Below, in pieces: positions 3,693 to 61,209 of a DNA stretch of 64,000 nt. Source of the stretch: Nitrospirota bacterium (lineage in GTDB: Bacteria > Nitrospirota > Nitrospiria > SBBL01 > JAADHI01); contig JAJDBW010000029.1 in assembly GCA_029261155.1 (NCBI GenBank), positions 1 through 64,000 of the forward strand, given 5' to 3'. Under the pieces are notes generated by a model. The model was not told the DNA's origin and did no database searches. It was given only the letters and a program-made list of their open reading frames with translations. Numbering within the stretch: the stretch's first letter is position 1; the number at the start of each line of letters is the position of its first letter. The translations under genes and the position numbers were made by a program.

Positions 3693-4988
3693 GTGGCAAA
3701 CCGCGTGGTGATGCCGAAGTTGACCGATACCATGGAAGAGGGCGTTCTTCTTCAGTGGTATAAAAAAGAGGGCGATACCGTCGAAAGCGGCGACGCCCTC
3801 GCCGAAGTCGAAACCGACAAGGCCGTGATGGACCTCGAGGCCTTCGCCTCCGGCACGCTTAAAAAAATCCTCGTTGAACCCGGCTACATCGTTCCCTCCG
3901 GCGACCTCATTGCGCTTATCGCCCGGGACGACGAAGACATCGAAGCCCTGCTTGCGAAGGAAAAGATGCCCCGGACCCGTCAGGTGGGCGAGGAAGGAAA
4001 AGCTGCGGCGCCAGCGGAGGAAGCGCCAGCTAAAACCACGAGTCCAAGCCCTCAACAAACTAAAACCCAATCTGATACGACACCTGAACCTGAGGCGAAA
4101 CCCAAAGCCGCAAGTCCCCCTTCCGCGCCCATCGCGCATACCGACGGCGAGATCAAGGCTTCGCCCTTGGCAAAAAAGATCGCCGCCGAACGGCAGATCG
4201 ATCTCAGCCAGATTCAAGGCAGTGGACCCGCCGGCAGGATTATTCAGCGCGATTTGGAAGGCCTTTCAGCAGGTGCCATCGCTTCGACGGGCGCAGCACC
4301 TTTGAACGAAGCCGAGCGGGTCGAGTTGACCATGCTGCGCAAGGCCATCGCCAGCCGCATGATTCAAAGCAAGGCCCCTGTGCCGCATTTTTATGTCACC
4401 TCCGAGATCGACATGGGCAAGATCCTTCCCCTGCGGGAAGCCCTGCAAAAAGACGGCGACACACCCAGACCCAGCATGAGCGATCTCTTTATCAAAGCAA
4501 CCGCACTGACCCTGCGCAAGTTCCCTGCCTTCCGGTCGAGCTATGCGGGCGATCATCTTAATGTTTCCAATGCGATAGACATCGGCCTCGCCATCGGCAT
4601 GCCGGAAGGCGTGATTACGGCGGTCATCCGCAACTGCGATCAAAAGACTCTGAGTCAAATCTCGGCGGAGGTCAAGGACAAGGCCGCGCGGGCCCGCGTC
4701 AAGAAACTCAAGCCGGAAGAATACACCGGCGCGGTGTTTAGCATCTCGAATCTCGGTATGTTCGATGTGGAATCCTTCAGCGCCATCATCACCCCGCCGG
4801 AAGCAGCCGTTCTGGCCATCGGATCGATCCTCGAAAAACCGGTCGTTTCAAACGGAGAAATAGTCATCGGTAAAATCATGAAGGTCACGCTCTCGACCGA
4901 CCACCGCGTCGCAGATGGACTGCAAGCCGCCGAATTTTTAAAGGCCCTGAAATCGACGATGGAAAATCCCTTGAGCCTCGCGCTCTAA
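3693..4988 (+). CDS. pdhC: Dihydrolipoamide acetyltransferase (E2) of the pyruvate dehydrogenase complex
   Basis: Has an N-terminal lipoyl domain (ETDKAVMDLEA). A Pro/Ala-rich linker and an E3-binding domain follow. The C-terminal catalytic domain carries DHRVADG. The start is GTG. Confidence 0.9.
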   Translation: MANRVVMPKLTDTMEEGVLLQWYKKEGDTVESGDALAEVETDKAVMDLEAFASGTLKKILVEPGYIVPSGDLIALIARDDEDIEALLAKEKMPRTRQVGEEGKAAAPAEEAPAKTTSPSPQQTKTQSDTTPEPEAKPKAASPPSAPIAHTDGEIKASPLAKKIAAERQIDLSQIQGSGPAGRIIQRDLEGLSAGAIASTGAAPLNEAERVELTMLRKAIASRMIQSKAPVPHFYVTSEIDMGKILPLREALQKDGDTPRPSMSDLFIKATALTLRKFPAFRSSYAGDHLNVSNAIDIGLAIGMPEGVITAVIRNCDQKTLSQISAEVKDKAARARVKKLKPEEYTGAVFSISNLGMFDVESFSAIITPPEAAVLAIGSILEKPVVSNGEIVIGKIMKVTLSTDHRVADGLQAAEFLKALKSTMENPLSLAL

Positions 4989-5002
4989 GATAGGGCAAGC
5001 AA

Positions 5003-6430
5003 ATGGAAAAAGAATACTCTGAAAAATCGGGCGAGTACCAGTACGATCTTTTAATTCTAGGCGGCGGGCCGGGCGGCTATGTCGCGGCCATCCGCGCGGG
5101 GCAACTCGGCATGAAGGTCGCCGTGATCGAAAAAGAAGCCATCGGCGGCACCTGCCTCCATCACGGCTGCATCCCCTCTAAGGCCATCATCCGCAATGCG
5201 GAAGTTCTGTCTCTGATTCAGGATGCTAATAAATTCGGCATCCAGGTCGATAATGTCCGGGCCGACTTCGGCGCGGCCATCGACCGCAGCCAAGAGGTCC
5301 TCGGTAAACTCCACAAGGGTGTTACACATCTGATGGAAAAACAGAAGGTCGAGATTCACGCGGGCTTCGGTAAACTCACAGGGCCAAAGACCATCGAAGT
5401 CAAAGGCGAAAAAGAAACGAAGACCCTCCGCGGCAAATCAATTATCATTTCGACGGGCAGCCGGGTGCGCAGCCTGCCCCATCTTAAAATCGACGGCAAA
5501 CGCATCCTCACCAGCGACGAGGCCCTGCTCCGGAAAGACCTCCCGAAGTCCGTGCTCATTGTCGGCGGTGGGGCCATCGGCTGCGAGTTCGCCTATATCT
5601 ATGCCGCCTACGGCGTGCCGGTGACGATTGTGGAAACCTTGCCCAACTTGCTGCCGCTTGAAGACAGCGAGGTCTCGAAGCTTCTCGAACGGTCCTTCAA
5701 AAAACGAAAGATCACCGTACTGACGAATACCTCAGTGACTGCAGTGAAGGATGAAAAAGGTGTATTTAAGATCGAATTCAAAACCGCAGACGGGGAGAGC
5801 GAGACGCGCGAGGCCGAAGTCATCCTCGTCGCCGTCGGGCGCGCGCCCAACGTCGAAAGCATCGGCCTGGAGACCCTCGGCGTGAGTGTGGACGAAAAAA
5901 CAAAGCTCATTCAGGTCGATGAAAAGATGCAAACCAAAAAAGCCAATATTTTTGCCATCGGCGACGTATCGAGCCGACCCGCCTTGGCCCACGGCGCGAT
6001 GGCGCAGGGCGTCTTCGTTGTCGAATCGTTGGCAGGCATCGCACGCACGCCCATTGAACTGCTCAACGTCCCCAGCGCGGTCTACTGTCATCCGCAGGTC
6101 GCTTCAATTGGCTTGACGGAAGAAAAGGCCAAGGCCGCCGGACATAGCGTGAAAGTCGCGAAGTTTCCCTTAAGCGCCAACGGCAAGGCCTTAGCCTTGG
6201 GCGAAACCGAAGGCTTCGTGAAGATCGTCACCGACGAAAAATACGGTGAGATCCTCGGCGCGCACATCATTGGCGCGGAGGCAACCGAACTCATCGGCGA
6301 ATTCGTCCTCGCCAAGACCCTCGAATCCACCGCCGCCGAACTCAAACAAAGCATCCACCCCCACCCCACCCTCAGCGAAGCCGTCATGGAAGCCGGCGGC
6401 GCGATTTTTGGCGAAGCGATTCATTCCTAG
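5003..6430 (+). CDS. lpdA: Dihydrolipoyl dehydrogenase (E3)
   Basis: Carries the FAD-binding GGGPGGY motif. The redox-active disulfide is GGTCLHHGCIPSK. The C-terminal region has the HPHPTLSE interface motif. Confidence 0.93.
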   Translation: MEKEYSEKSGEYQYDLLILGGGPGGYVAAIRAGQLGMKVAVIEKEAIGGTCLHHGCIPSKAIIRNAEVLSLIQDANKFGIQVDNVRADFGAAIDRSQEVLGKLHKGVTHLMEKQKVEIHAGFGKLTGPKTIEVKGEKETKTLRGKSIIISTGSRVRSLPHLKIDGKRILTSDEALLRKDLPKSVLIVGGGAIGCEFAYIYAAYGVPVTIVETLPNLLPLEDSEVSKLLERSFKKRKITVLTNTSVTAVKDEKGVFKIEFKTADGESETREAEVILVAVGRAPNVESIGLETLGVSVDEKTKLIQVDEKMQTKKANIFAIGDVSSRPALAHGAMAQGVFVVESLAGIARTPIELLNVPSAVYCHPQVASIGLTEEKAKAAGHSVKVAKFPLSANGKALALGETEGFVKIVTDEKYGEILGAHIIGAEATELIGEFVLAKTLESTAAELKQSIHPHPTLSEAVMEAGGAIFGEAIHS

Positions 6431-6521
6431 AAAACTAATTGTTACACAATCCTCATACCGCAGCTTGACTGCGGTATCCATTCATTCATATAAGTATTAC
6501 TCACATGATGAGGAGACCTAA

Positions 6522-7076
6522 ATGAGTTGGCGCTCCGAGAAAACCTACGTCGCAAGGATTGGAGGGATAATCTACAAAAACGTCCAATTGCCGATTGTGT
6601 GCAATGGTTCTCCCATGCTAAAAATCACACGGTCCACTGAAACAGGTGAGTTGGGACTAACGTTTTTGGTTTTCAACGAAAAAGGTGAGCACATTGGGAA
6701 TGTTGAGAACAACAAGATTAGTTTCTCGGACACAGATAGCTACATCGTCCAAATCGGACTCAAGAGGCAAGCCTTGATTGATAAGAAGAATGGGAGAGTT
6801 CTCTGTGATCTGAAGTTTTCAATTCGCCCTTCCGATCCAGAGGTTGAAGTAGTTGCAATTCTTTTTTCGGAAGGCCGTTTTCCAATCATCCTCCACCCAG
6901 ACAGAAGCAAATTTGGAAAAGCTAATGATAATACGCCACCTAATATTTCAGGGTTGACTCTGACCACAGCCGAGAACAGTGAAGCATGCGCAGTATTATT
7001 AGAAAAAGAAAATGCAGTGTATTTGCTTGGGATTACAATTGAGAATTTCAAAACAGGAATATCGGTAAAAACATGA
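6522..7076 (+). CDS. Hypothetical protein (first gene of the low-GC islet)
   Basis: A 184-aa ORF with no recognisable motifs. Its composition is AT-rich relative to the flanking genes, and it lies 9 bp upstream of the DUF2971 gene. Confidence 0.5.
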   Translation: MSWRSEKTYVARIGGIIYKNVQLPIVCNGSPMLKITRSTETGELGLTFLVFNEKGEHIGNVENNKISFSDTDSYIVQIGLKRQALIDKKNGRVLCDLKFSIRPSDPEVEVVAILFSEGRFPIILHPDRSKFGKANDNTPPNISGLTLTTAENSEACAVLLEKENAVYLLGITIENFKTGISVKT

Positions 7077-7085
7077 GATCTTAAG

Positions 7086-8057
7086 GTGAACGTTAACGAT
7101 CAGGAAAAGCAAGCAATATCGAAGCTAACTGAATCGATCCTTTCAAAATGGATAGATTCACATAAATTTTTCCCCAATACCCTCTATCATTATACATCCG
7201 CTGACAGCTTAGTCGGAATATTTACGAGCAAGAGCATATGGCTTACAGATTTGAGGTATATGAGCGATGCGTCCGAATTACAGTATTCAAAGGCGTTAAT
7301 ACGCAAAAGACTGGAGGAAAAATCCAAGGAGCCAGGTCTATCATATGAGGGAAGTGAATTCCTTAAGAGAATACGGGACAGCTTCGATCCTTTTTCCCAT
7401 AGATTCTCTGCGTTTTCCGCCTCATTTTGTGAAGAAGGAAACCTACTCAGCCAGTGGCGCGCATATCGGGGGCAAGGCGGCGGATACTCACTAGGATTTG
7501 ATTTCTTACATTCACTCCGATTCCTTGATAGGCCATGTGTCTTGCGAAAAGTAATTTATGATGAGATGCAGCAAGTCAGTGAGGTCGATACAACAATAAA
7601 TCTGTTCTTGGAAGCCATAGACGAACAAGCATCTAACAAAGCTGCGGAACACATAAGCTCCTCAATTCTCCCTGCTTTTTGTAAAGCTTTCTCTTCTACA
7701 GTTGGAGAATATTTGTTCTGCTTCAAGCACCCGGATTTTCATGAAGAGAAGGAATGGAGACTCGTCTACTCTTGCTCAGTCAATCCGACCTTTGAACGAG
7801 ATATGAAATTTCAGTTGCCATCATTTAGGGCCAACCACGGCAACGTGATACCCTATCATATCGTCCACCTTGATAACGCAATAAATGCATCCAAGGATGA
7901 TACATATGGTGTCCCTTTCCCAATTGTAGAGGTCATTATAGGACCGACGATTAGCAGCAAACTTAACATGGAGTCCCTAAGCATAATGATTTTGTCTATG
8001 AATTCAGATGTCGTTCCTAATATTAGGCAGTCTGAGATTCCATTAAGATGGCTTTAG
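7086..8057 (+). CDS. DUF2971 family protein
   Basis: Has the N-terminal LYHYTS…L..I…S.WLT…MSDASE motif and the SQWRAYRGQGGGYSLGF motif typical of DUF2971. The start is GTG. The gene is low-GC. Confidence 0.6.
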   Translation: MNVNDQEKQAISKLTESILSKWIDSHKFFPNTLYHYTSADSLVGIFTSKSIWLTDLRYMSDASELQYSKALIRKRLEEKSKEPGLSYEGSEFLKRIRDSFDPFSHRFSAFSASFCEEGNLLSQWRAYRGQGGGYSLGFDFLHSLRFLDRPCVLRKVIYDEMQQVSEVDTTINLFLEAIDEQASNKAAEHISSSILPAFCKAFSSTVGEYLFCFKHPDFHEEKEWRLVYSCSVNPTFERDMKFQLPSFRANHGNVIPYHIVHLDNAINASKDDTYGVPFPIVEVIIGPTISSKLNMESLSIMILSMNSDVVPNIRQSEIPLRWL

Positions 8058-8103
8058 CAAGGTAGATCAAATACAAAGATGTAGACGATGCCCTTACACC
8101 AAA

Positions 8104-8382
8104 TTGACAAGATCCGTAAAAAAAATATCCGGTTATATATTAGCCAGTAAAAAGAAGGGCACTATATACACGGGTATGACGCCAAATCTTCCCCAGCGGA
8201 TCTGGCCGCATAAAAATAAAGAGATTGAAGGCTTTACTAAAAAGTATGCGGTTGATAGGCTTGTTTATTATAAACTGCACGAAAGTGCTGAGGCCGCAAT
8301 CAAGCGAGAACGGGGGATCAAGGAATGGCCCTGCCAGCGGCTTCACCGCAATATCCGAAATTTCAGAAATAAAACAGGATAA
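8104..8382 (+). CDS. GIY-YIG nuclease family protein (UPF0213/YhbQ-like small endonuclease)
   Basis: Contains GYILASKKKGTIYTGMTPNLPQRIWPHKNK…FTKKYAVDRLVYYKLHESAEAAIKRERGIKEW, which is the GIY…YIG, R, E, N core arrangement. The start is TTG. The gene is low-GC. Confidence 0.6.
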   Translation: MTRSVKKISGYILASKKKGTIYTGMTPNLPQRIWPHKNKEIEGFTKKYAVDRLVYYKLHESAEAAIKRERGIKEWPCQRLHRNIRNFRNKTG

Positions 8383-8390
8383 GAGCAGCG

Positions 8391-9311
8391 ATGCCCAAAC
8401 AACATTTTTTAACCCCCCCTCAACCACGAACTGAGCGGCTTCCTGCCTGGTTCAAGGTCAAGGTACGGACAGGTGAACGCTACCTCAAGATTCGGCAACT
8501 GACGAAGGACTTGAATCTGCACACCGTGTGCGAAGAGGCGCAGTGCCCGAATATTTGGGAGTGCTGGAATGCGGGGACGGCGACCTTTATGATCTTGGGC
8601 GATATCTGCACGCGCAGTTGCGGCTTTTGCGCCGTGAAGCTGGGCCAGCCGGGACCGCTCGATTTAGAGGAACCGGCGCACGTCGCAGAGGCGGTGGCTA
8701 ATCTTGGATTGGGCCACGTCGTCATCACCTCGGTTAACCGGGATGAGTTGGAGAATGGCGGGGCGGAAATCTTCGCAGAGACGATTGCCAAGATTCGGGA
8801 ATGCTCGCCCCGGTGCGGCGTCGAAGTGCTCATCCCCGATTTTCTGGGCAAGCCCATTCCGCTCGACATCGTCATCAAAAAACGGCCCGACATTCTCGCA
8901 CACAACATCGAAACGGTGCCCTCTCTTTATCGCCTCGTGCGGCCCCAAGCGCAGTATCAACGTTCACTGGACGTACTGGTGCGCGCAAAGCAAGCGGGGC
9001 TTCGGACGAAAACGGGTTTGATGTTGGGAATAGGAGAAACCATTGCAGAGGTCGAAACGGTGATGGCCGACTTGGTGAAAATCGGCTGCGACATTTTGAC
9101 GCTCGGACAGTATCTTCAGCCGACGGCCAAGCATCTGCCCATAGCCCGCTTCGTTCCGCCGGAGGAATTTTTAGATCTTAAAAAACGGGGAGAGGCCTTG
9201 GGCCTAAGCCACGTGGAATCCGGCCCCTTGGTGCGCAGTTCCTACCACGCCGAACAACAGGTCGGCGAACTGCAAACCGCCAATCGAAATCCGCTGGACG
9301 TCATTAAATAA
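8391..9311 (+). CDS. lipA: Lipoyl synthase
   Basis: Has the auxiliary cluster motif CPNIWEC. The radical-SAM motif is CTRSCGFCAV. Confidence 0.93.
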   Translation: MPKQHFLTPPQPRTERLPAWFKVKVRTGERYLKIRQLTKDLNLHTVCEEAQCPNIWECWNAGTATFMILGDICTRSCGFCAVKLGQPGPLDLEEPAHVAEAVANLGLGHVVITSVNRDELENGGAEIFAETIAKIRECSPRCGVEVLIPDFLGKPIPLDIVIKKRPDILAHNIETVPSLYRLVRPQAQYQRSLDVLVRAKQAGLRTKTGLMLGIGETIAEVETVMADLVKIGCDILTLGQYLQPTAKHLPIARFVPPEEFLDLKKRGEALGLSHVESGPLVRSSYHAEQQVGELQTANRNPLDVIK

Positions 9312-9974: not shown

Positions 9975-11027
9975 TTACTTATAACCCATCCGGTCCATCA
10001 ATCGGATCGCGGCCTGTTGCAGTTCGCCCGCCTTCGCCAGGTTGGCCTGGTCTTGCTTAAACGCACCCCAGGTGGACACTGCCGGGGCGGACTTTACTTT
10101 TGGGTTTGCCGGATATTCGAGGTTGTCATCGGCGAAGAGGTTTTGGGCCTCGGCGGATGAGAGCCATTCCAGCAGGCGCAGCGCGGCTTCAGGGTGTTTG
10201 CTATGCCGGGTGACACCGGCACCGGAAATGTTGACATGCACGCCACGGCCATTTTGGTTGGGCCAAAACAGGGCCAAGGGCAATTTGGGCTTGTCTCTGA
10301 GCAGACGCCCGTAATAATAGGTATTGACGATGCCGACATCGCACTGACCGGCGGCAATGGCTTCCAAGACTTGGGTGTCATTCGAAAAAACCGGCGTGGC
10401 CAAGTTCGCCACCCAGGCACGGACAACCGCTTCCGTTTTTTTCTCGCCCAGGGCGTGGATCATCATCGCCACCATCGATTGATTGTAAACTTTATTGGAG
10501 GTACGAAGGCAGAGCCGCTTCTTCCAAGCAGGGTCACCCAAGGCTTCGTAGCTGGAGAGGACGGAGGGCTTAACCACTTTCGAATTATAAACGATCGTTC
10601 GGGCACGGATCGACAAACCGGTCCAATAACCTTCGGCATCGCGCAGATGGGCAGGGATATTCGTTTTGAGAATCTTGGAATCGACGGCTTTGAGCACGCC
10701 TTCACGCGCCGCGTGCCACAGATTACCGGCATCGACCGTAATGAGGAGATCGGCGGGGCTATTCTTTCCTTCTGCCTTAAGCCGCACTAAGAGCGCCGCT
10801 TCCTTATCAGTAAAGAGTTCATACTGAAGTCCGGTTTCTTTTGCATAGCGATCGAGCACCGGTTTAATCAGGTGCTCATTGCGGGCCGAATAGATAACGA
10901 TTTTCTCGGCGGCGAATACGGGCGAACGCGGAAGGAAAAAATACGTAAGGCTCAGCAGACAGCAGAGACTAAGGCAGGCTCTAGAAAAAACATTCAAACG
11001 ACACATCAAAACACTCCTTTTCAACAA
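9975..11027 (-). CDS. Fe(3+) ABC transporter substrate-binding protein (FbpA/AfuA family)
   Basis: Has a signal peptide followed by the IVIYSARNEHLIKPVLDRYAKETG…DLLITVDAGNLW…GYWTGLSIRARTIVYN pattern typical of iron(III)-binding periplasmic proteins. Confidence 0.78.
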   Translation of the reverse strand: MLKRSVLMCRLNVFSRACLSLCCLLSLTYFFLPRSPVFAAEKIVIYSARNEHLIKPVLDRYAKETGLQYELFTDKEAALLVRLKAEGKNSPADLLITVDAGNLWHAAREGVLKAVDSKILKTNIPAHLRDAEGYWTGLSIRARTIVYNSKVVKPSVLSSYEALGDPAWKKRLCLRTSNKVYNQSMVAMMIHALGEKKTEAVVRAWVANLATPVFSNDTQVLEAIAAGQCDVGIVNTYYYGRLLRDKPKLPLALFWPNQNGRGVHVNISGAGVTRHSKHPEAALRLLEWLSSAEAQNLFADDNLEYPANPKVKSAPAVSTWGAFKQDQANLAKAGELQQAAIRLMDRMGYK

Positions 11028-11230
11028 GGCATCTATATAATTTAGGATCGCGATTCTTCCTCGAAATAGCCTTCCATTTTTAAGGCCGAATTTTTCTTAA
11101 GAATCTCGCACCTTTCTTGATGGATACAGGAGATGAATCGGCCTTGTCAAGTGATCCCCCACCACTCATATTCCCTGCAGCAAGCCTTGAGCAAAAACGT
11201 CTTCTCTTGAACCGGTTTTGCGATTATCGT

Positions 11231-11908
11231 ATGATCGCCTATTCACTCCATCAACGAGGACATCACATGGCCGCCGCACTCCAATGGGAAGAGATTGCAT
11301 CAAAAAATTCACCGAAAACCACTGTGTTCTGCATTCACGGGCGCGGGGCCAATGGGGAAGACCTCATTCCACTTGCCGACGAAATCGATTTGCCCGATAC
11401 GCGATGGCTTTTCCCGCATGCCCCCTTTCCCTGCCCAGGGCTGCCCGGCGGACGAATGTGGTTTGGCACCGCTGCCGAGGGTTTAGCCGGTATCGAAAAC
11501 AGCCGCACCTTGTTAATTGCCCTCATCGATCTTGTAATTCAAAACGGCCCAAACCCCGCTGAAAAACTGGTGCTGCTCGGTTTTTCTCAAGGCGCGGTCA
11601 TGGCCTTGGATGCCGGACTTCGCTATCCGAAACGCCTGGGCGCCATCACGGCCTTGAGCGGTTTTTTGGCTCGACCCGAAACCCTTCACGATGAGAGGTC
11701 GGAGGCCTCGAAAACCCTTCCCATATTATTGGTTCATGGCACGGAGGACGAGATCGTTACCGTTGACGGCTCCCGTAAGGCCCGCGAAACCCTAGCGGCC
11801 GAAGGCTACGAGGCTCAACTCAAGGAATACCCCATGGGTCATCAGATCGTTCAAGAAGAAATTAATCTCATCCGGACCTTTCTGATGGACAAGCTGGATC
11901 TGACTTGA
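11231..11908 (+). CDS. Phospholipase/carboxylesterase-family alpha/beta hydrolase
   Basis: Carries FCIHGRGANGEDL…GFSQGAVMALDAG…LLVHGTEDEIV…GH, the pfam02230-like Ser/Asp/His arrangement. The start is uncertain (11117, 11231 or 11267). Confidence 0.72.
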   Translation: MIAYSLHQRGHHMAAALQWEEIASKNSPKTTVFCIHGRGANGEDLIPLADEIDLPDTRWLFPHAPFPCPGLPGGRMWFGTAAEGLAGIENSRTLLIALIDLVIQNGPNPAEKLVLLGFSQGAVMALDAGLRYPKRLGAITALSGFLARPETLHDERSEASKTLPILLVHGTEDEIVTVDGSRKARETLAAEGYEAQLKEYPMGHQIVQEEINLIRTFLMDKLDLT

Positions 11909-54618: not shown

Positions 54619-55848
54619 ATGGCAATCATGAAAATTTCAGCTCAGTTCCGTTCAATCTCAGGGGGAATTACCGCAGTAAAAGGTTTTGTCGCTGCCGGGC
54701 TTTATTCTGGGATTAAAAAAAATGGCAAGCCGGACCTTGCCCTGATTTTTAATAAAAACACATGCACAGTTGCCGGCGTGTTTACAAAAAATCGTTTCTG
54801 CGCAGCACCTCTCCTCCTTTGTAAAAAGCACCTCAAAAAAGGACGCGGACAGGCCATCATTGTCAACAGTGGAAACGCCAATGCCTTTACGGGCAAAAGA
54901 GGACTGGACGATGCCAAGGCCATGGCCACAGCCACGGCACAACAACTCGGAATAGACAAAACATCTGTCTATGTCGCATCGACCGGCGTTATTGGGGAAG
55001 CCCTCCCGATTGACCCTATCATTGCTGCCATTCCAAATCTGGTAGATATATTGTCAAGGAAGGGAAGTTTCTCGGCGGCGGAAGCGATCAAAACCACGGA
55101 TACCTTTGCAAAAGAGATCGCCTTAGAGGGAAGGGTAGGAGAACAAAAGATTCGCGTCGGAGGGATTGCTAAAGGATCAGGCATGATCCATCCAAACATG
55201 GCAACGATGCTGGGCTTTCTGGCAACAGATGTCAACATGACCCAGCCACTTCTCCAGGATGCCCTAAAAGAAGCTGTGGATGGCTCTTTTCATCGAATTA
55301 CAGTGGATGGCGATACCAGTACGAACGACATGGTCCTTTTGTTTTCAAATAACCAGAAAGGGAAGACCATCAACAAAAAAGGACCGCCTTTTCGAGATTT
55401 CGTCGCGCTACTCAAGGCGGCCTGCCTCTCCCTTGCAAAAATGCTTGTCATTGACGGCGAAGGGGCGACAAAATGCATTGAAATTAGAGTCACGGGCGCG
55501 AAAGATAACCAATCCGCCCAGAGCATTGCCTTTGCCGTCGCACAATCAAACCTTGTTAAAACAGCCTTTTTCGGAGAAGATGCGAACTGGGGAAGAATTG
55601 TTGCTGCAATTGGAAATGCAGGGGTGAAGGTCTCGCCAGAGGAAATTCATCTGTCTTTTGGCGACCTACCTTTGGTCCATGAGGGAAAATTTATGGGAAA
55701 AGCGGCAGAATCAAAAGTAGCACACTACCTTAAAAATAAAGAACTACAACTAAATATCGCATTGTCTTCCGGAAAAGGGTGTGCCGAAGTGTGGACTTCC
55801 GATCTAAGCCTTGATTATATAAAAATCAATGCTTTGTATAGAAGCTAG
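54619..55848 (+). CDS. argJ: Bifunctional glutamate N-acetyltransferase / amino-acid acetyltransferase
   Basis: Carries the ArgJ self-cleavage site ATMLGFLATD and a conserved C-terminus. Confidence 0.92.
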   Translation: MAIMKISAQFRSISGGITAVKGFVAAGLYSGIKKNGKPDLALIFNKNTCTVAGVFTKNRFCAAPLLLCKKHLKKGRGQAIIVNSGNANAFTGKRGLDDAKAMATATAQQLGIDKTSVYVASTGVIGEALPIDPIIAAIPNLVDILSRKGSFSAAEAIKTTDTFAKEIALEGRVGEQKIRVGGIAKGSGMIHPNMATMLGFLATDVNMTQPLLQDALKEAVDGSFHRITVDGDTSTNDMVLLFSNNQKGKTINKKGPPFRDFVALLKAACLSLAKMLVIDGEGATKCIEIRVTGAKDNQSAQSIAFAVAQSNLVKTAFFGEDANWGRIVAAIGNAGVKVSPEEIHLSFGDLPLVHEGKFMGKAAESKVAHYLKNKELQLNIALSSGKGCAEVWTSDLSLDYIKINALYRS

Positions 55849-56233
55849 CCCGAAAGGATTTAATATAAAGCACCTGGATTGGCCAGTCGGAAGATTATAG
55901 GTCGAGACGAATCCGGTTAGATTTTATTTTTGTCTTTTTAAAGAAAACTTTTTTAGAATAATAATAGTAGGAGCGTCAAAAAATGGAGGGTAAGCGCCTA
56001 AAGTCCTTTAAAATAAAAGGAATTTAGTGGGTATAGCCCTGTGGATAAATGTTCTATCTTCCTTTCTCTCCTTGATTCGTCTAGAGGCTTTTAGTATAAT
56101 TCCACAGTCCTCAGTCAGACCAAGCCCAAGAGAATGTTTCTATTTCTCTACTTAGCAACGAACATCTTGATAAATAGTACCTAAATTAATCCACAGCTGT
56201 TTATAATCTTGTGAATAACCCTCTGATTATCCT
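55849..56233. promoter_or_regulatory. AT-rich DnaA-box cluster upstream of dnaA (candidate oriC / dnaA autoregulatory region)
   Basis: About 35% GC against ~58% background. A perfect DnaA box TTATCCACA lies on the minus strand at 56040..56048. One-mismatch boxes sit at about 56186..56195 (TAATCCACA) and 56209..56218 (TTATTCACA). An A/T tract (GATTTTATTTTTGTCTTTTTAAAGAAAACTTTTTTAGAATAATAATA) could act as a DNA unwinding element. Confidence 0.55.
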
Positions 56234-57556
56234 ATGAGAAATGATTTGGTTTGGAATGATCTCTTGTTGCGAATCAAACCGAGCATCAATGAGCAGGTTT
56301 ATGAAACCTGGATCAAACCAACTTCGCTTCTTGCTGTTTCAGGGGAGGAGGTTCAGATTGCGGTGCCGAATCAATTTTTTAAGGATTGGATTAAGGAACA
56401 TTATTCCCACTTGATTGAGGATGCATTAAAAAAGGAATTGTCGCAAGACACGGTTTCTATTCAATATATTGTAAAAGGAGCGGGGGAAAACGTCGAAAAC
56501 CCTCGAACTGAAAAGACACAAAAGAAAAGAAACACCACCAACCTGAATCCCAGATACAAGTTTCAGACATTTGTCGTTGGATCGAGCAATCAATTTGCGC
56601 ATGCGGCCTCCTTAAAAGTCGCCGAACGGCCCGGCATTACCTACAATCCTCTTTTCCTCTATGGTGGTGTGGGTTTAGGAAAGACACATCTTTTGAGCGC
56701 AATCGGCAATTATATAGACACAAATAATCCCAATAGTCGCATCGCCTACCTCTCTTCCGAACAGTTTACGAACGACGTCATCAATTCCATTCGATACGAT
56801 AAAATGACGGAGTTTCGGAACCGCTATCGTAATGTCGATGCCCTCCTGATCGACGACATTCAATTTATTTCTGGAAAAGAAAGGACACAAGAAGAGTTTT
56901 TTCACACCTTTAATACCCTTTATGAGGCGAGTAAGCAGGTGGTTATTTCGAGCGACCGCTCCGTGAAAGAAATGTCAGATATAGAAGAAAGGCTCCGTTC
57001 CCGATTTGAAATGGGCCTCATCGCCGACATTCAACCCCCCGACCTTGAAACCAAAATTGTGATTCTTCGCCGGAAGGCCGAACTTGAAAATATAGCCCTT
57101 CATAACGATGTTGCCCTTTTGCTCGCGACGCACATCAAAACCAACATCCGTGAATTAGAAGGCTCGCTCATTCGTTTGGGGGCCTTCAGTTCCTTGACCG
57201 GGCAGGAAATCACGGTTGAAATGGCGAAGCGGGTACTCAGGGATACCATACAGGAAAGAAAAAAGGTGGTGACTGCCGACGATGTCCTGCGCGCGGTCGC
57301 CGAGCGGTTTCAAGTCAAGATCATTGAAATTAAATCGAAGAAGCGCACTCGAAACCTGGTCACTCCCCGGCAAATTGGGATGTATCTCTCGCGGGATTTA
57401 ACGAATCTCTCCTTTCCGGAGATCGGGAAGGCCTTTGGCGGAAAAGATCACTCCACGGTGATCCATGCCTGTAAGCAGATTGAAAAAGAAAAAGCGGAGG
57501 ATTTTAACCTCAAGATGATCCTCGAGAGCCTAGCAAAACGTCTGAGGGAGGAATAG
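56234..57556 (+). CDS. dnaA: Chromosomal replication initiator protein DnaA
   Basis: The AAA+ region is GGVGLGKTHLL. Domain IV carries HTH/DnaA-box binding (…RQIGMYLSRDLT…GGKDHSTV…). Confidence 0.95.
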   Translation: MRNDLVWNDLLLRIKPSINEQVYETWIKPTSLLAVSGEEVQIAVPNQFFKDWIKEHYSHLIEDALKKELSQDTVSIQYIVKGAGENVENPRTEKTQKKRNTTNLNPRYKFQTFVVGSSNQFAHAASLKVAERPGITYNPLFLYGGVGLGKTHLLSAIGNYIDTNNPNSRIAYLSSEQFTNDVINSIRYDKMTEFRNRYRNVDALLIDDIQFISGKERTQEEFFHTFNTLYEASKQVVISSDRSVKEMSDIEERLRSRFEMGLIADIQPPDLETKIVILRRKAELENIALHNDVALLLATHIKTNIRELEGSLIRLGAFSSLTGQEITVEMAKRVLRDTIQERKKVVTADDVLRAVAERFQVKIIEIKSKKRTRNLVTPRQIGMYLSRDLTNLSFPEIGKAFGGKDHSTVIHACKQIEKEKAEDFNLKMILESLAKRLREE

Positions 57557-57558
57557 CT

Positions 57559-58680
57559 GTGAAGGTAAAAATGAATAGGAAAGACCTTCTCGCCGGAATA
57601 CAGCGCGTCCAAGGGGTCGTTGAAAAAAGGAATACCATGCCCATTTTAACCCATATCCTAATCGAGGCCCAGAAAGAGGCGTGCGCTTTTTTCGCGACTG
57701 ATCTCGAGGCGGGGATACAAGGGACTTATAGTGCGGAGGTGATTGATCCCGGTCGGATTACGGTTTCCGCCCGAAAACTCAGCGAGATTGTCCGCGAATT
57801 TCCGGAGGGGCCGGTCAGTATCCAATCCCAGCCCAATCATTGGGTCGTTATCGAATCCGGAAAAAGCCATTTTCGCATCGTTGGCCTGCCCCCCGAAGAG
57901 TTTCCCGCCTTGCCGCCCATGGATAGCGAGAATTGGATTGAAATTGATCCGGGGCTTTTCTCGGGTTTAATTCGCCGAACCCTTTTTGCTGCCGGGGATA
58001 ATGCCCCCCAATATATTTTAAATGGCCTCTTAATTCAGGTGGAAAAAATAACCAAAGAAAAGGGCGTCCTTCGCTTTATCGCGACAGACGGTCATCGCCT
58101 GGCCATCGCCGAAGGGGAGGCGAAGGGCAAAGACCTGGAAGACCAAGAAGGGGTCATCGTTCCCAAAAAGGCTATCCTTGAAATAAAGCGTGCCTTGGAT
58201 GAAGGCGAAGACCCCGCCGCGCCCGAGATTTCCATCGGGAAAAACCAATTGGTCTTTCGTTGGGGAAATGTGGTGATTACAAGTCGTTTGATCGAAGGGG
58301 ATTTCCCGGATTACAAGCAGGCCATTCCAAAAGGCAACGATCAACACGTGCCGATGCAAAAGGAGGCGCTTGAAGGCGGGCTCCGGCGCGTCTCCATTTT
58401 AGCCCGAGAGAAAACCAGCGCGATTAAATTTCAATTGGAAAAAGGCCGAGTGCTCTTGAGCGCAAGCAACCCGGAGATGGGCGAAGCCAATGAAGAGATC
58501 AACAGCAATTTTTCCGGGGAGGGTTTCACGACCGGTTTCAATGCGCGCTACCTTCTTGACGCCCTGGCGGCGCTCAAGGGAGACGAAGCCATCCTGGAGT
58601 TTAAAGATGCCCTTTCTCCCTGCTTGATTAAAGAAAAAAAAGAGGGATTTTTAGCCGTCATTATGCCGATGCGGGTTTAG
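57559..58680 (+). CDS. dnaN: DNA polymerase III beta sliding clamp
   Basis: Three-domain clamp (…ILTHILIEA…LRFIATDGHRLA…MPMRV). The start is GTG 57559 or ATG 57571. Confidence 0.92.
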   Translation: MKVKMNRKDLLAGIQRVQGVVEKRNTMPILTHILIEAQKEACAFFATDLEAGIQGTYSAEVIDPGRITVSARKLSEIVREFPEGPVSIQSQPNHWVVIESGKSHFRIVGLPPEEFPALPPMDSENWIEIDPGLFSGLIRRTLFAAGDNAPQYILNGLLIQVEKITKEKGVLRFIATDGHRLAIAEGEAKGKDLEDQEGVIVPKKAILEIKRALDEGEDPAAPEISIGKNQLVFRWGNVVITSRLIEGDFPDYKQAIPKGNDQHVPMQKEALEGGLRRVSILAREKTSAIKFQLEKGRVLLSASNPEMGEANEEINSNFSGEGFTTGFNARYLLDALAALKGDEAILEFKDALSPCLIKEKKEGFLAVIMPMRV

Positions 58681-58779
58681 TGAACTGCGCCGGGTGATTT
58701 TATGGATATAGAAGCATGACTTGTATTTGTCCCTCCTCTGTCGGAACGAAGGCCTCCCGCGTTTCGTCCACGACAATAG

Positions 58780-61209
<2,430 letters not shown>

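Follow-up and report, generated by a model that had tools for sequence, protein, structure and literature searches.

In the DarTG system, DarT is an ADP-ribosyltransferase (ART) acting on single-stranded DNA, DarG is its macrodomain antitoxin, and the darT gene is placed first. Both the DarG macrodomains and the NADAR proteins strip ADP-ribose enzymatically.

The DUF2971 proteins, reported in about 6,000 species, have been predicted to be ADP-ribosyltransferases of the DarT/AbiGi-like kind, with a poorly conserved histidine in motif I, a strictly conserved tyrosine in motif II and an ExE motif III (PMC12522546). AbiGi is itself ART-like and is resembled by DUF2971 in sequence (PMC12522546). 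The only experimentally studied member of this very large family is Aristaios, a protein of 316 aa encoded on the Lactococcus plasmid pUCCL641_199, which constitutes a single-gene, Abi-like antiphage system (PMC11381338, PMC13064643). Aristaios acts by interfering with phage transcription (PMC11381338, PMC13064643, PMC12184496), and NAD+-dependent ADP-ribosyl transfer was, in the literature searched, not demonstrated for any DUF2971 protein.

Here, a DUF2971 gene (ORF2) and the gene preceding it (ORF1) are described from the window, the whole stretch of 64 kb of Nitrospirota DNA that was analysed. The best reading of the pair is a DUF2971 defence variant made up of two genes and acquired horizontally, in which ORF1 would restrain or trigger the enzyme. 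ORF2 and Aristaios have in common the PF11185 family, the size class (323 and 316 aa) and the predicted ART fold; both are cytoplasmic and located on mobile DNA. Aristaios is, however, one gene, whereas the clade of ORF2 always has ORF1 upstream, and the hosts differ in phylum and habitat. For ORF2, both family and likely role have been published before. The novelty lies in the partner: one DUF2971 clade is obligately paired with a conserved protein for which no structural relative could be detected. A DUF2971 clade with an obligate partner of the ORF1 type was not found described in the searchable literature.

A low-GC stretch between lpdA and lipA

The genes lpdA (5003-6430) and lipA (8391-9311), both confirmed by Pfam, flank the stretch under study, and all features given here are on the forward strand. 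A leader (6431-6521, sequence read directly) precedes ORF1 (6522-7076), which encodes the 184-aa partner of the DUF2971 enzyme and has no Pfam domain. After a gap of 9 nt follows ORF2 (7086-8057; 323 aa, GTG start, Pfam PF11185), and then a spacer (8058-8103) holding CGATGCCCTTACACCA at 8086-8101. ORF3 (8104-8382; 92 aa, TTG start, PF01541) is a degenerate small GIY-YIG gene of the UPF0213/YhbQ-like type. A comparison of the junctions of 17 relatives assigned the last segment, 8383-8404, to residual ancestral intergenic sequence and the lipA ribosome-binding region. The gene positions, the 9-bp gap and the DUF2971 and GIY-YIG identities of the original prediction were all recovered.

That prediction had also described the stretch as AT-rich, and the windowed GC calculation agreed. 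The GC content of 6431-8390 is 41.8% (0.418), the minimum of all 1960-nt windows across the 64 kb (mean 0.528, sd 0.037) and some 3 sd below their mean. GC ran at 0.38-0.445 over about 6400-8400 compared to 0.55-0.60 on either side, and GC3 was 0.435-0.441 in ORF1, ORF2 and ORF3 compared to 0.66-0.71 in E1b, E2, lpdA and lipA. The sole other comparably AT-rich stretch in the window is the argJ-dnaA origin region; this second low-GC region (about 55.5-57 kb) was considered as another islet and dismissed, being made up of argJ, an AT-rich gap and the dnaA-dnaN-gyrB origin region.

An integrase or recombinase gene was not present in 6431-8390, no tRNA was found in the 64-kb window, nor a second copy of ORF1, ORF2 or ORF3, and Rfam gave no match over the islet. 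The repeats around it are short and imperfect, as expected by chance. The absence of an integrase and of flanking direct repeats had been anticipated, and the locus lacks the integrase, tRNA target and att-type direct repeats of a classical integrase-borne island. The repeat D5 (CGATGCCC..) brackets ORF3 with 13 matches in 16 positions and a spacing of 303 nt; its copies are at 8086-8101 and 8389-8404, the first being an imperfect repeat of the sequence around the lipA start. D5 is possibly a target duplication, though such repeats are expected by chance in 2.9 kb, and for that reason it was discarded as evidence of insertion. Neither was a resemblance between 6455-6480, 8337-8366 and positions 5939-5965 of the related locus L010 relied on (BLAST E about 2).

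Two insertions of different age

A LipA scan of species-representative genomes placed the window in the Nitrospirota, among MAGs of the Manganitrophaceae/Troglogloeales-like kind, and the 24 closest loci, all from Nitrospirota, were compared. In 19 of these, lpdA was located upstream of lipA on the same strand, and in 18 of the 24 the two genes were 15-161 nt apart, typically about 20 nt. Ancestrally, then, the junction was a tight one, and the 1.96 kb now found there were inserted into it. The expectation that lpdA and lipA are commonly contiguous was thus borne out, and with the low GC and GC3 so was the claim of horizontally acquired DNA between ancestrally adjacent units. The insertion itself is an ordinary horizontal acquisition.

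The closest relative, L010 (LipA 85% and LpdA 87% identical), also has a filled lpdA-lipA junction, of about 1.4 kb and with other content than the window: on the opposite strand, a gene for a PyrF-like protein of 239 aa and, directly 5′ of lipA (about 5790-5990), a remnant of the GIY-YIG gene of ORF3. The remnant includes a 30-nt match to ORF3 with 87% identity, the alignment runs across the gene with a 41-nt deletion, and the translated match, PHLR*QIWQDKYKVIEDFTNKDAVDRLL, is interrupted by an in-frame stop (tblastn E 4e-7). Both ORF1 and ORF2 are absent from L010. Since the remnant occurs there without the pair, the GIY-YIG gene was already carried by the ancestor that the window and L010 share, and ORF1-ORF2 came later, between lpdA and the GIY-YIG gene. 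A foreign insertion at this junction, reached in two steps, is almost certain. The older acquisition would be the small GIY-YIG gene, now decaying, and the younger one a mobile cassette of ORF1 and ORF2.

ORF3 matched the Pfam GIY-YIG family PF01541 (E 6e-12, 46.2 bits) and retains the GIY...YIG core residues Y11, Y22, R32, H36 and E69, in common with small UPF0213/YhbQ-like proteins such as BH0048 (PDB 1ZG2). These proteins have a conserved C-terminal helix with an Asn-Pro-x-Trp motif, which ORF3 lacks: its homologues (93-103 aa) cover only 71-77% of it, and it has unrelated residues in place of the nearly invariant C-terminal segment KR.WK..LIE..NP.W.DLY. At two positions a conserved acidic residue is lost (E35 to P, E57 to K), the TTG start has no evident ribosome-binding site, and the exact protein was absent from a collection of 15 billion proteins. 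By its residues, ORF3 is probably decaying and its nuclease probably inactive.

The original prediction had seen one islet of three genes, in which the GIY-YIG nuclease would work with ORF1 and ORF2. The three genes do have the same strand and a similar GC (0.42) and GC3 (0.44). A GIY-YIG gene accompanies the pair, however, in none of the 16 other pair loci, the L010 pseudogene occurs without the pair, and ORF3 lacks the conserved C-terminal third and has the TTG start described above. A joint three-gene system is accordingly most improbable, and the pair is treated below as a unit of two genes.

ORF2, a predicted ADP-ribosyltransferase

ORF2, which contains LYHYTS and SQWRAYRGQGGGYSLGF, scored 44.9 bits (E 3.1e-11) over all 89 positions of the Pfam model of DUF2971 (PF11185), whose gathering threshold is 22. 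The earlier view that DUF2971 has no established function has been overtaken by the ART prediction (PMC12522546) and by the antiphage activity of Aristaios (PMC11381338, PMC13064643). The structure model of ORF2 is confident (pLDDT 94). Among compact structures it matches DarT and Tpt1 best, and the ART-like fold begins at about residue 5 and spans the entire protein; going by this model, the protein very probably has the ART fold. Across 82 sequences there is no variation at H35/Y36, Y127 (within SQWRxY) or E221-x-E223, in agreement with the modified H-Y-E motifs described for DUF2971 (PMC12522546); in the model, these residues are on or next to the core strands E33-38 and E223-231. ORF2 is predicted to be a cytoplasmic ADP-ribosyltransferase and the effector of the module.

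The Pfam DarT family (DUF4433) was not detected in ORF2, for which DUF2971 alone was reported at E up to 1, and a profile of the ORF2 clade had no match among PDB sequences at E up to 10. ORF2 differs from DarT also in its large helical inserts. Tpt1/KptA, an RNA 2′-phosphotransferase, serves in housekeeping or repair. Unlike ORF2, it has an active site of the H-H-h type and an additional RNA-binding lobe at the N-terminus; it has no partner protein and does not resemble ORF2 in sequence. The lactococcal AbiGi/AbiGii is, as ORF1-ORF2 may be, a two-gene Abi system with a component of the ART superfamily, a likeness taken from PMC12522546; neither ORF1 nor ORF2 had an AbiG match by Pfam or PADLOC. 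The PADLOC-DB used, of 2023, predates Aristaios.

With its modified H-Y-E site (H35, the Y127 region and E221-x-E223), ORF2 most likely transfers ADP-ribose from NAD+ to nucleic acid or to some other essential target, nucleic acid being suggested because the closest folds, DarT and Tpt1, both act on it. Such an activity would halt the infected cell, or it would stop replication or transcription of the phage, as proposed for Aristaios.

Alternatively, ORF2 might be exported, as an effector or as a toxin against other bacteria, a role suggested for certain DUF2971 proteins of Legionella; ORF1 would then be its immunity protein or chaperone. About 18% of the DUF2971 proteins are predicted effectors (PMC12522546), and in one locus, L091, an Imm42-like gene and a series of small ORFs come after the pair. 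Against export, neither a signal peptide nor a trafficking or delivery domain was found in ORF2, where the ART-like fold leaves no more than the first few residues uncovered, and secretion-system genes were near no copy of the pair examined. Export is very unlikely, and an effector acting in the cytoplasm is preferred.

An obligate and mobile gene pair

In all 16 loci examined that carried a full-length ORF1 homologue, a DUF2971 gene of the ORF2 clade came next on the same strand, at most about 30 nt away or with a 14-nt overlap (L002, L007 and L009). ORF1 and ORF2 thereby show the layout of type II toxin-antitoxin (TA) systems: two small co-directional genes, tightly spaced or overlapping and inherited together. 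An ORF2 relative of 40% identity has a co-diverged partner with 20% identity to ORF1 (hhalign probability 98%, E 2e-13). A relative of 36% identity stands by itself, next to the terminase and portal genes of a prophage; the plasmid-borne DUF2971 relatives found, all of which were at most 31% identical to ORF2 (25-31%), have no partner, and the more distant members are single genes. More distant DUF2971 genes also follow qatABCD on the Agrobacterium plasmid pAt, match phrog_1762, and are present on a streptococcal phage satellite.

The identities of ORF1 and ORF2 to the window copies correlate across loci (r = 0.98). Relative to the nearest copy, L090, dN/dS is 0.126 for ORF1 and 0.092 for ORF2; at values of about 0.1, both genes are under purifying selection, ORF1 evolving faster than ORF2. 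The DNA of L090 is 79.8% similar from 4 nt before the ATG of ORF1 to the stop of ORF2, and the leader upstream of 6518 has no homology with L090. Because the similarity is limited to the two genes, the transferred unit was just ORF1 and ORF2. In 15 of 16 other hosts the GC content of the pair is below that of its flanks.

The surroundings of the pair vary and often contain genes of defence or of mobile elements. Its neighbours comprise genes of mobile elements (integrases, a resolvase and a Y1 transposase), of the toxin-antitoxin type (HipA, an MNT-type nucleotidyltransferase, RadC, and VapBC-type and addiction-module components) and of defence (a SIR2 fragment, HEPN_AbiU2 and a type II methyltransferase). 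OLD/GajA-like ATPases are encoded directly upstream of the pair in two unrelated genomes. In L101, L104 and the window, the pair stands alone among housekeeping genes with no mobile element.

A purely selfish addiction module, which would stabilise its mobile DNA and have no part in phage defence, accords with the two-gene operon, with the integrases, resolvase and TA genes beside it, and with its occurrence alone in the chromosome in the three loci just named. A member of the DUF2971 family has, however, direct antiphage activity (PMC11381338). Many TA modules, DarTG included, are moreover defence systems, so that the two readings overlap. Addiction with no defence role is considered improbable. 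A toxin, abortive-infection or defence module, which the original prediction had found plausible, is the best reading for ORF1-ORF2, and a function of the pair in defence or as a TA system is rather likely.

ORF1 and its possible roles

ORF1 had been taken for an orphan. Searches gave a different picture: 19 close homologues with 36-75% identity, all about 180-190 aa long and with strongly conserved motifs, and, by profile in 1.84 billion representatives, 175 matches of which 22 were full length. The full-length family corresponds to about 22 clusters at 50% identity, and in the loci examined it is always followed by the DUF2971 clade. About 150 further clusters consist of proteins of some 150 aa that share only the N-terminal ~130 residues of ORF1. 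As these do not adjoin DUF2971 genes, they are uninformative on the pair.

The predicted fold of ORF1 is all-beta, and no known structural relative of it was detected. Pfam, NCBIfam, PADLOC and PHROGs yielded nothing above threshold, the sub-threshold matches (YIEGIA, E 0.03; LOFI repeat, E 0.28; phrog_6544, E 1e-4) being regarded as noise. Profile matches to giant multi-GAF histidine kinases and to a cadherin-repeat protein were rejected, their scores having built up over many weak repeats. The ORF1 profile met nothing meaningful among PDB sequences and nothing in viral contigs, and a DNA-binding domain of the HTH, RHH or AbrB type was found neither by profile nor by fold. The partner of ORF2 thus differs from DarG: it is encoded upstream, reversing the gene order of DarTG, and is no macrodomain, nor does a macrodomain adjoin ORF2. 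For these reasons and because of its all-beta fold, enzymatic reversal of ADP-ribosylation by ORF1 is unlikely.

ORF1 is a candidate inhibitor (antitoxin) or sensor. As an inhibitor, ORF1, translationally linked to ORF2 and co-diverging with it, would bind the enzyme directly and hold it inactive in the manner of an antitoxin, and infection or stress would lift the restraint. A lineage present in two metagenome samples (L098/L105) bears on this: its ORF1 is intact, and its ORF2 lacks residues 1-222 and is frame-broken, as would be expected if ORF2 is harmful in the absence of ORF1.

The main rival has ORF1 as a positive sensor or activator, with ORF2 inactive alone and switched on when ORF1 recognises a phage component, which would amount to abortive infection with no TA behaviour. 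The faster evolution of ORF1 is what a component tracking phage proteins would show. ORF1 carries no known antitoxin domain, its N-terminal part stands alone elsewhere in the family of ~150-aa proteins and so looks like a reusable binding module, and the single-gene action of Aristaios means that DUF2971 enzymes can keep themselves in check. The retention of ORF1 beside a destroyed ORF2 in L098/L105, however, fits a protective protein better than an orphaned sensor, and antitoxin genes typically lie upstream and are translationally coupled, as ORF1 is. The sensor is judged rather unlikely, though not negligibly so. Taken by itself, the assignment of ORF1 as the inhibitor of ORF2 is nearly evenly balanced, leaning slightly against. 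The explanation as a whole, with two acquisitions, ORF2 as ART effector and ORF1 as its dedicated partner, most likely an inhibitor, is favoured as probable.

More tentatively, ORF1 may be the founder of a new class of partners for ART toxins of the nucleic-acid type, being all-beta, binding directly and serving as inhibitor, phage sensor or both; the pair would then represent a distinct and widespread antiphage or TA system of two genes that has so far gone undescribed. Should ORF1 prove to have a new fold and to act as antitoxin or sensor by non-enzymatic means, this would be a new control mechanism for ART-based immunity. A clade with an obligate, co-evolving partner offers an experimental way into the control of DUF2971 enzymes, and in annotation, pairs of a hypothetical protein and DUF2971 could be labelled as one candidate defence/TA module.

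Leader and transcription of the junction

The leader contains a perfect 9-bp hairpin (6455-6463/6469-6477) whose loop reads CTTGA. Two promoter-like hexamers, TTGACT at 6465-6470 and TATAAG at 6489-6494, are separated by 18 nt, and the Shine-Dalgarno sequence GAGGAG (6510-6515) is located 5′ of ORF1. The hexamers were read by eye and were not listed by a consensus scanner, so that the assignment of 6465-6494 is a reading of the sequence. The hairpin (6455-6477) overlaps the putative −35 hexamer, and the leader RNA folds with an MFE of −19.7 kcal/mol (z = −3.1 relative to shuffles).

No intrinsic terminator was predicted on the forward strand from 6014 to 8905. Because of this, and because the inserted genes are co-directional with lipA, lipA is probably still transcribed by read-through. 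One operon junction has here been hit by two independent insertions, and the transcriptional continuity into lipA was apparently kept.

The lpdA-lipA junction

In the Nitrospiria MAG D_2_bin.29 (JBHHXH010000001.1), the closest relative of the window, the equivalent lpdA-lipA junction (locus L010, 4611-6000) was occupied by a PyrF-like gene of 239 aa in the opposite orientation (4825-5544). Beside this gene the junction held approximately 450 nt of AT-rich non-coding DNA containing a GIY-YIG pseudogene. From the GIY-YIG gene, pyrF and the ORF1-ORF2 pair found in the junctions of the window and L010, it follows that the site between lpdA and lipA has been struck at least three times. The linkage of the two flanking genes was common in the lineage and not universal, since among the 24 closest relatives five (L012, L013, L016, L018 and L019) had neither lpdA nor any PDH gene ahead of lipA. 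In more distant Nitrospira, lipA was directly preceded by an E2 gene.

The GIY-YIG ORF of the window is bracketed by an imperfect direct repeat, CGATGCCCTTACACCA at 8086-8101 and CGATGCCCAAACAACA at 8389-8404, the second copy of which constitutes the start codon region of lipA. This repeat, which is statistically unremarkable, might be a target-site duplication left by the GIY-YIG insertion.

The leader of ORF1 (6431-6521) was predicted to fold with CCUCA (6450-6454) paired to UGAGG (6508-6512) in the Shine-Dalgarno region, enclosing a 9-bp hairpin (fold z = -3.1). This predicted structure might exert translational or transcriptional control, or might simply be the terminator of the PDH operon.

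Relatives of ORF1 and DUF2971 in other genomes

The pair was directly preceded by the gene of an approximately 600-aa ATPase in a MAG in GCA_044869265.1 (L002, 5907-7718) and in Salinicola sp. CR57 (L008/L009, 5569-7344), two genomes that are unrelated to each other. This OLD/GajA/AriA-like AAA_15/AAA_21 protein could belong to a neighbouring defence system or be an optional third component. Derivative pair loci were detected in two soil metagenomes (L098, 133-1163; L105, 1-710), where the ORF1 homologue was intact and the DUF2971 gene was frame-broken with the first ~222 codons gone. Small DUF433-like and addiction-module-like genes were located downstream of these loci.

In a sizeable unannotated family of proteins of approximately 150 aa (P0164-P0288), the similarity to ORF1 was confined to the N-terminal ~130 residues of the latter. 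Members of this family, represented by loci L092-L095, sit in other contexts; in L092, for instance, an excisionase-type HTH_17 gene lies close by.

Plasmid At of Agrobacterium fabrum C58 (L106, NC_003064.2, 13390-24241) carries a distantly related DUF2971 gene (27% identity) immediately 3′ of qatC-qatD, which belong to the Qat antiphage system. The same island harbours a KAP NTPase, an integrase and VapBC, and the DUF2971 gene may be an unrecognised accessory or neighbouring defence gene.

Other low-GC regions of the window

An AT-rich intergenic gap (55849-56233, GC 0.38-0.41) separates argJ from dnaA, in the order argJ, gap, dnaA, dnaN and gyrB (54619-61209). The gap very probably represents the origin of chromosome replication (oriC), and this putative origin lies approximately 48 kb from the islet. 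A smaller dip in GC content (0.445-0.463) was observed at 10800-11400, around the intergenic region that separates two divergent ORFs, at 9975-11027 (reverse strand) and 11117-11908 (forward strand).
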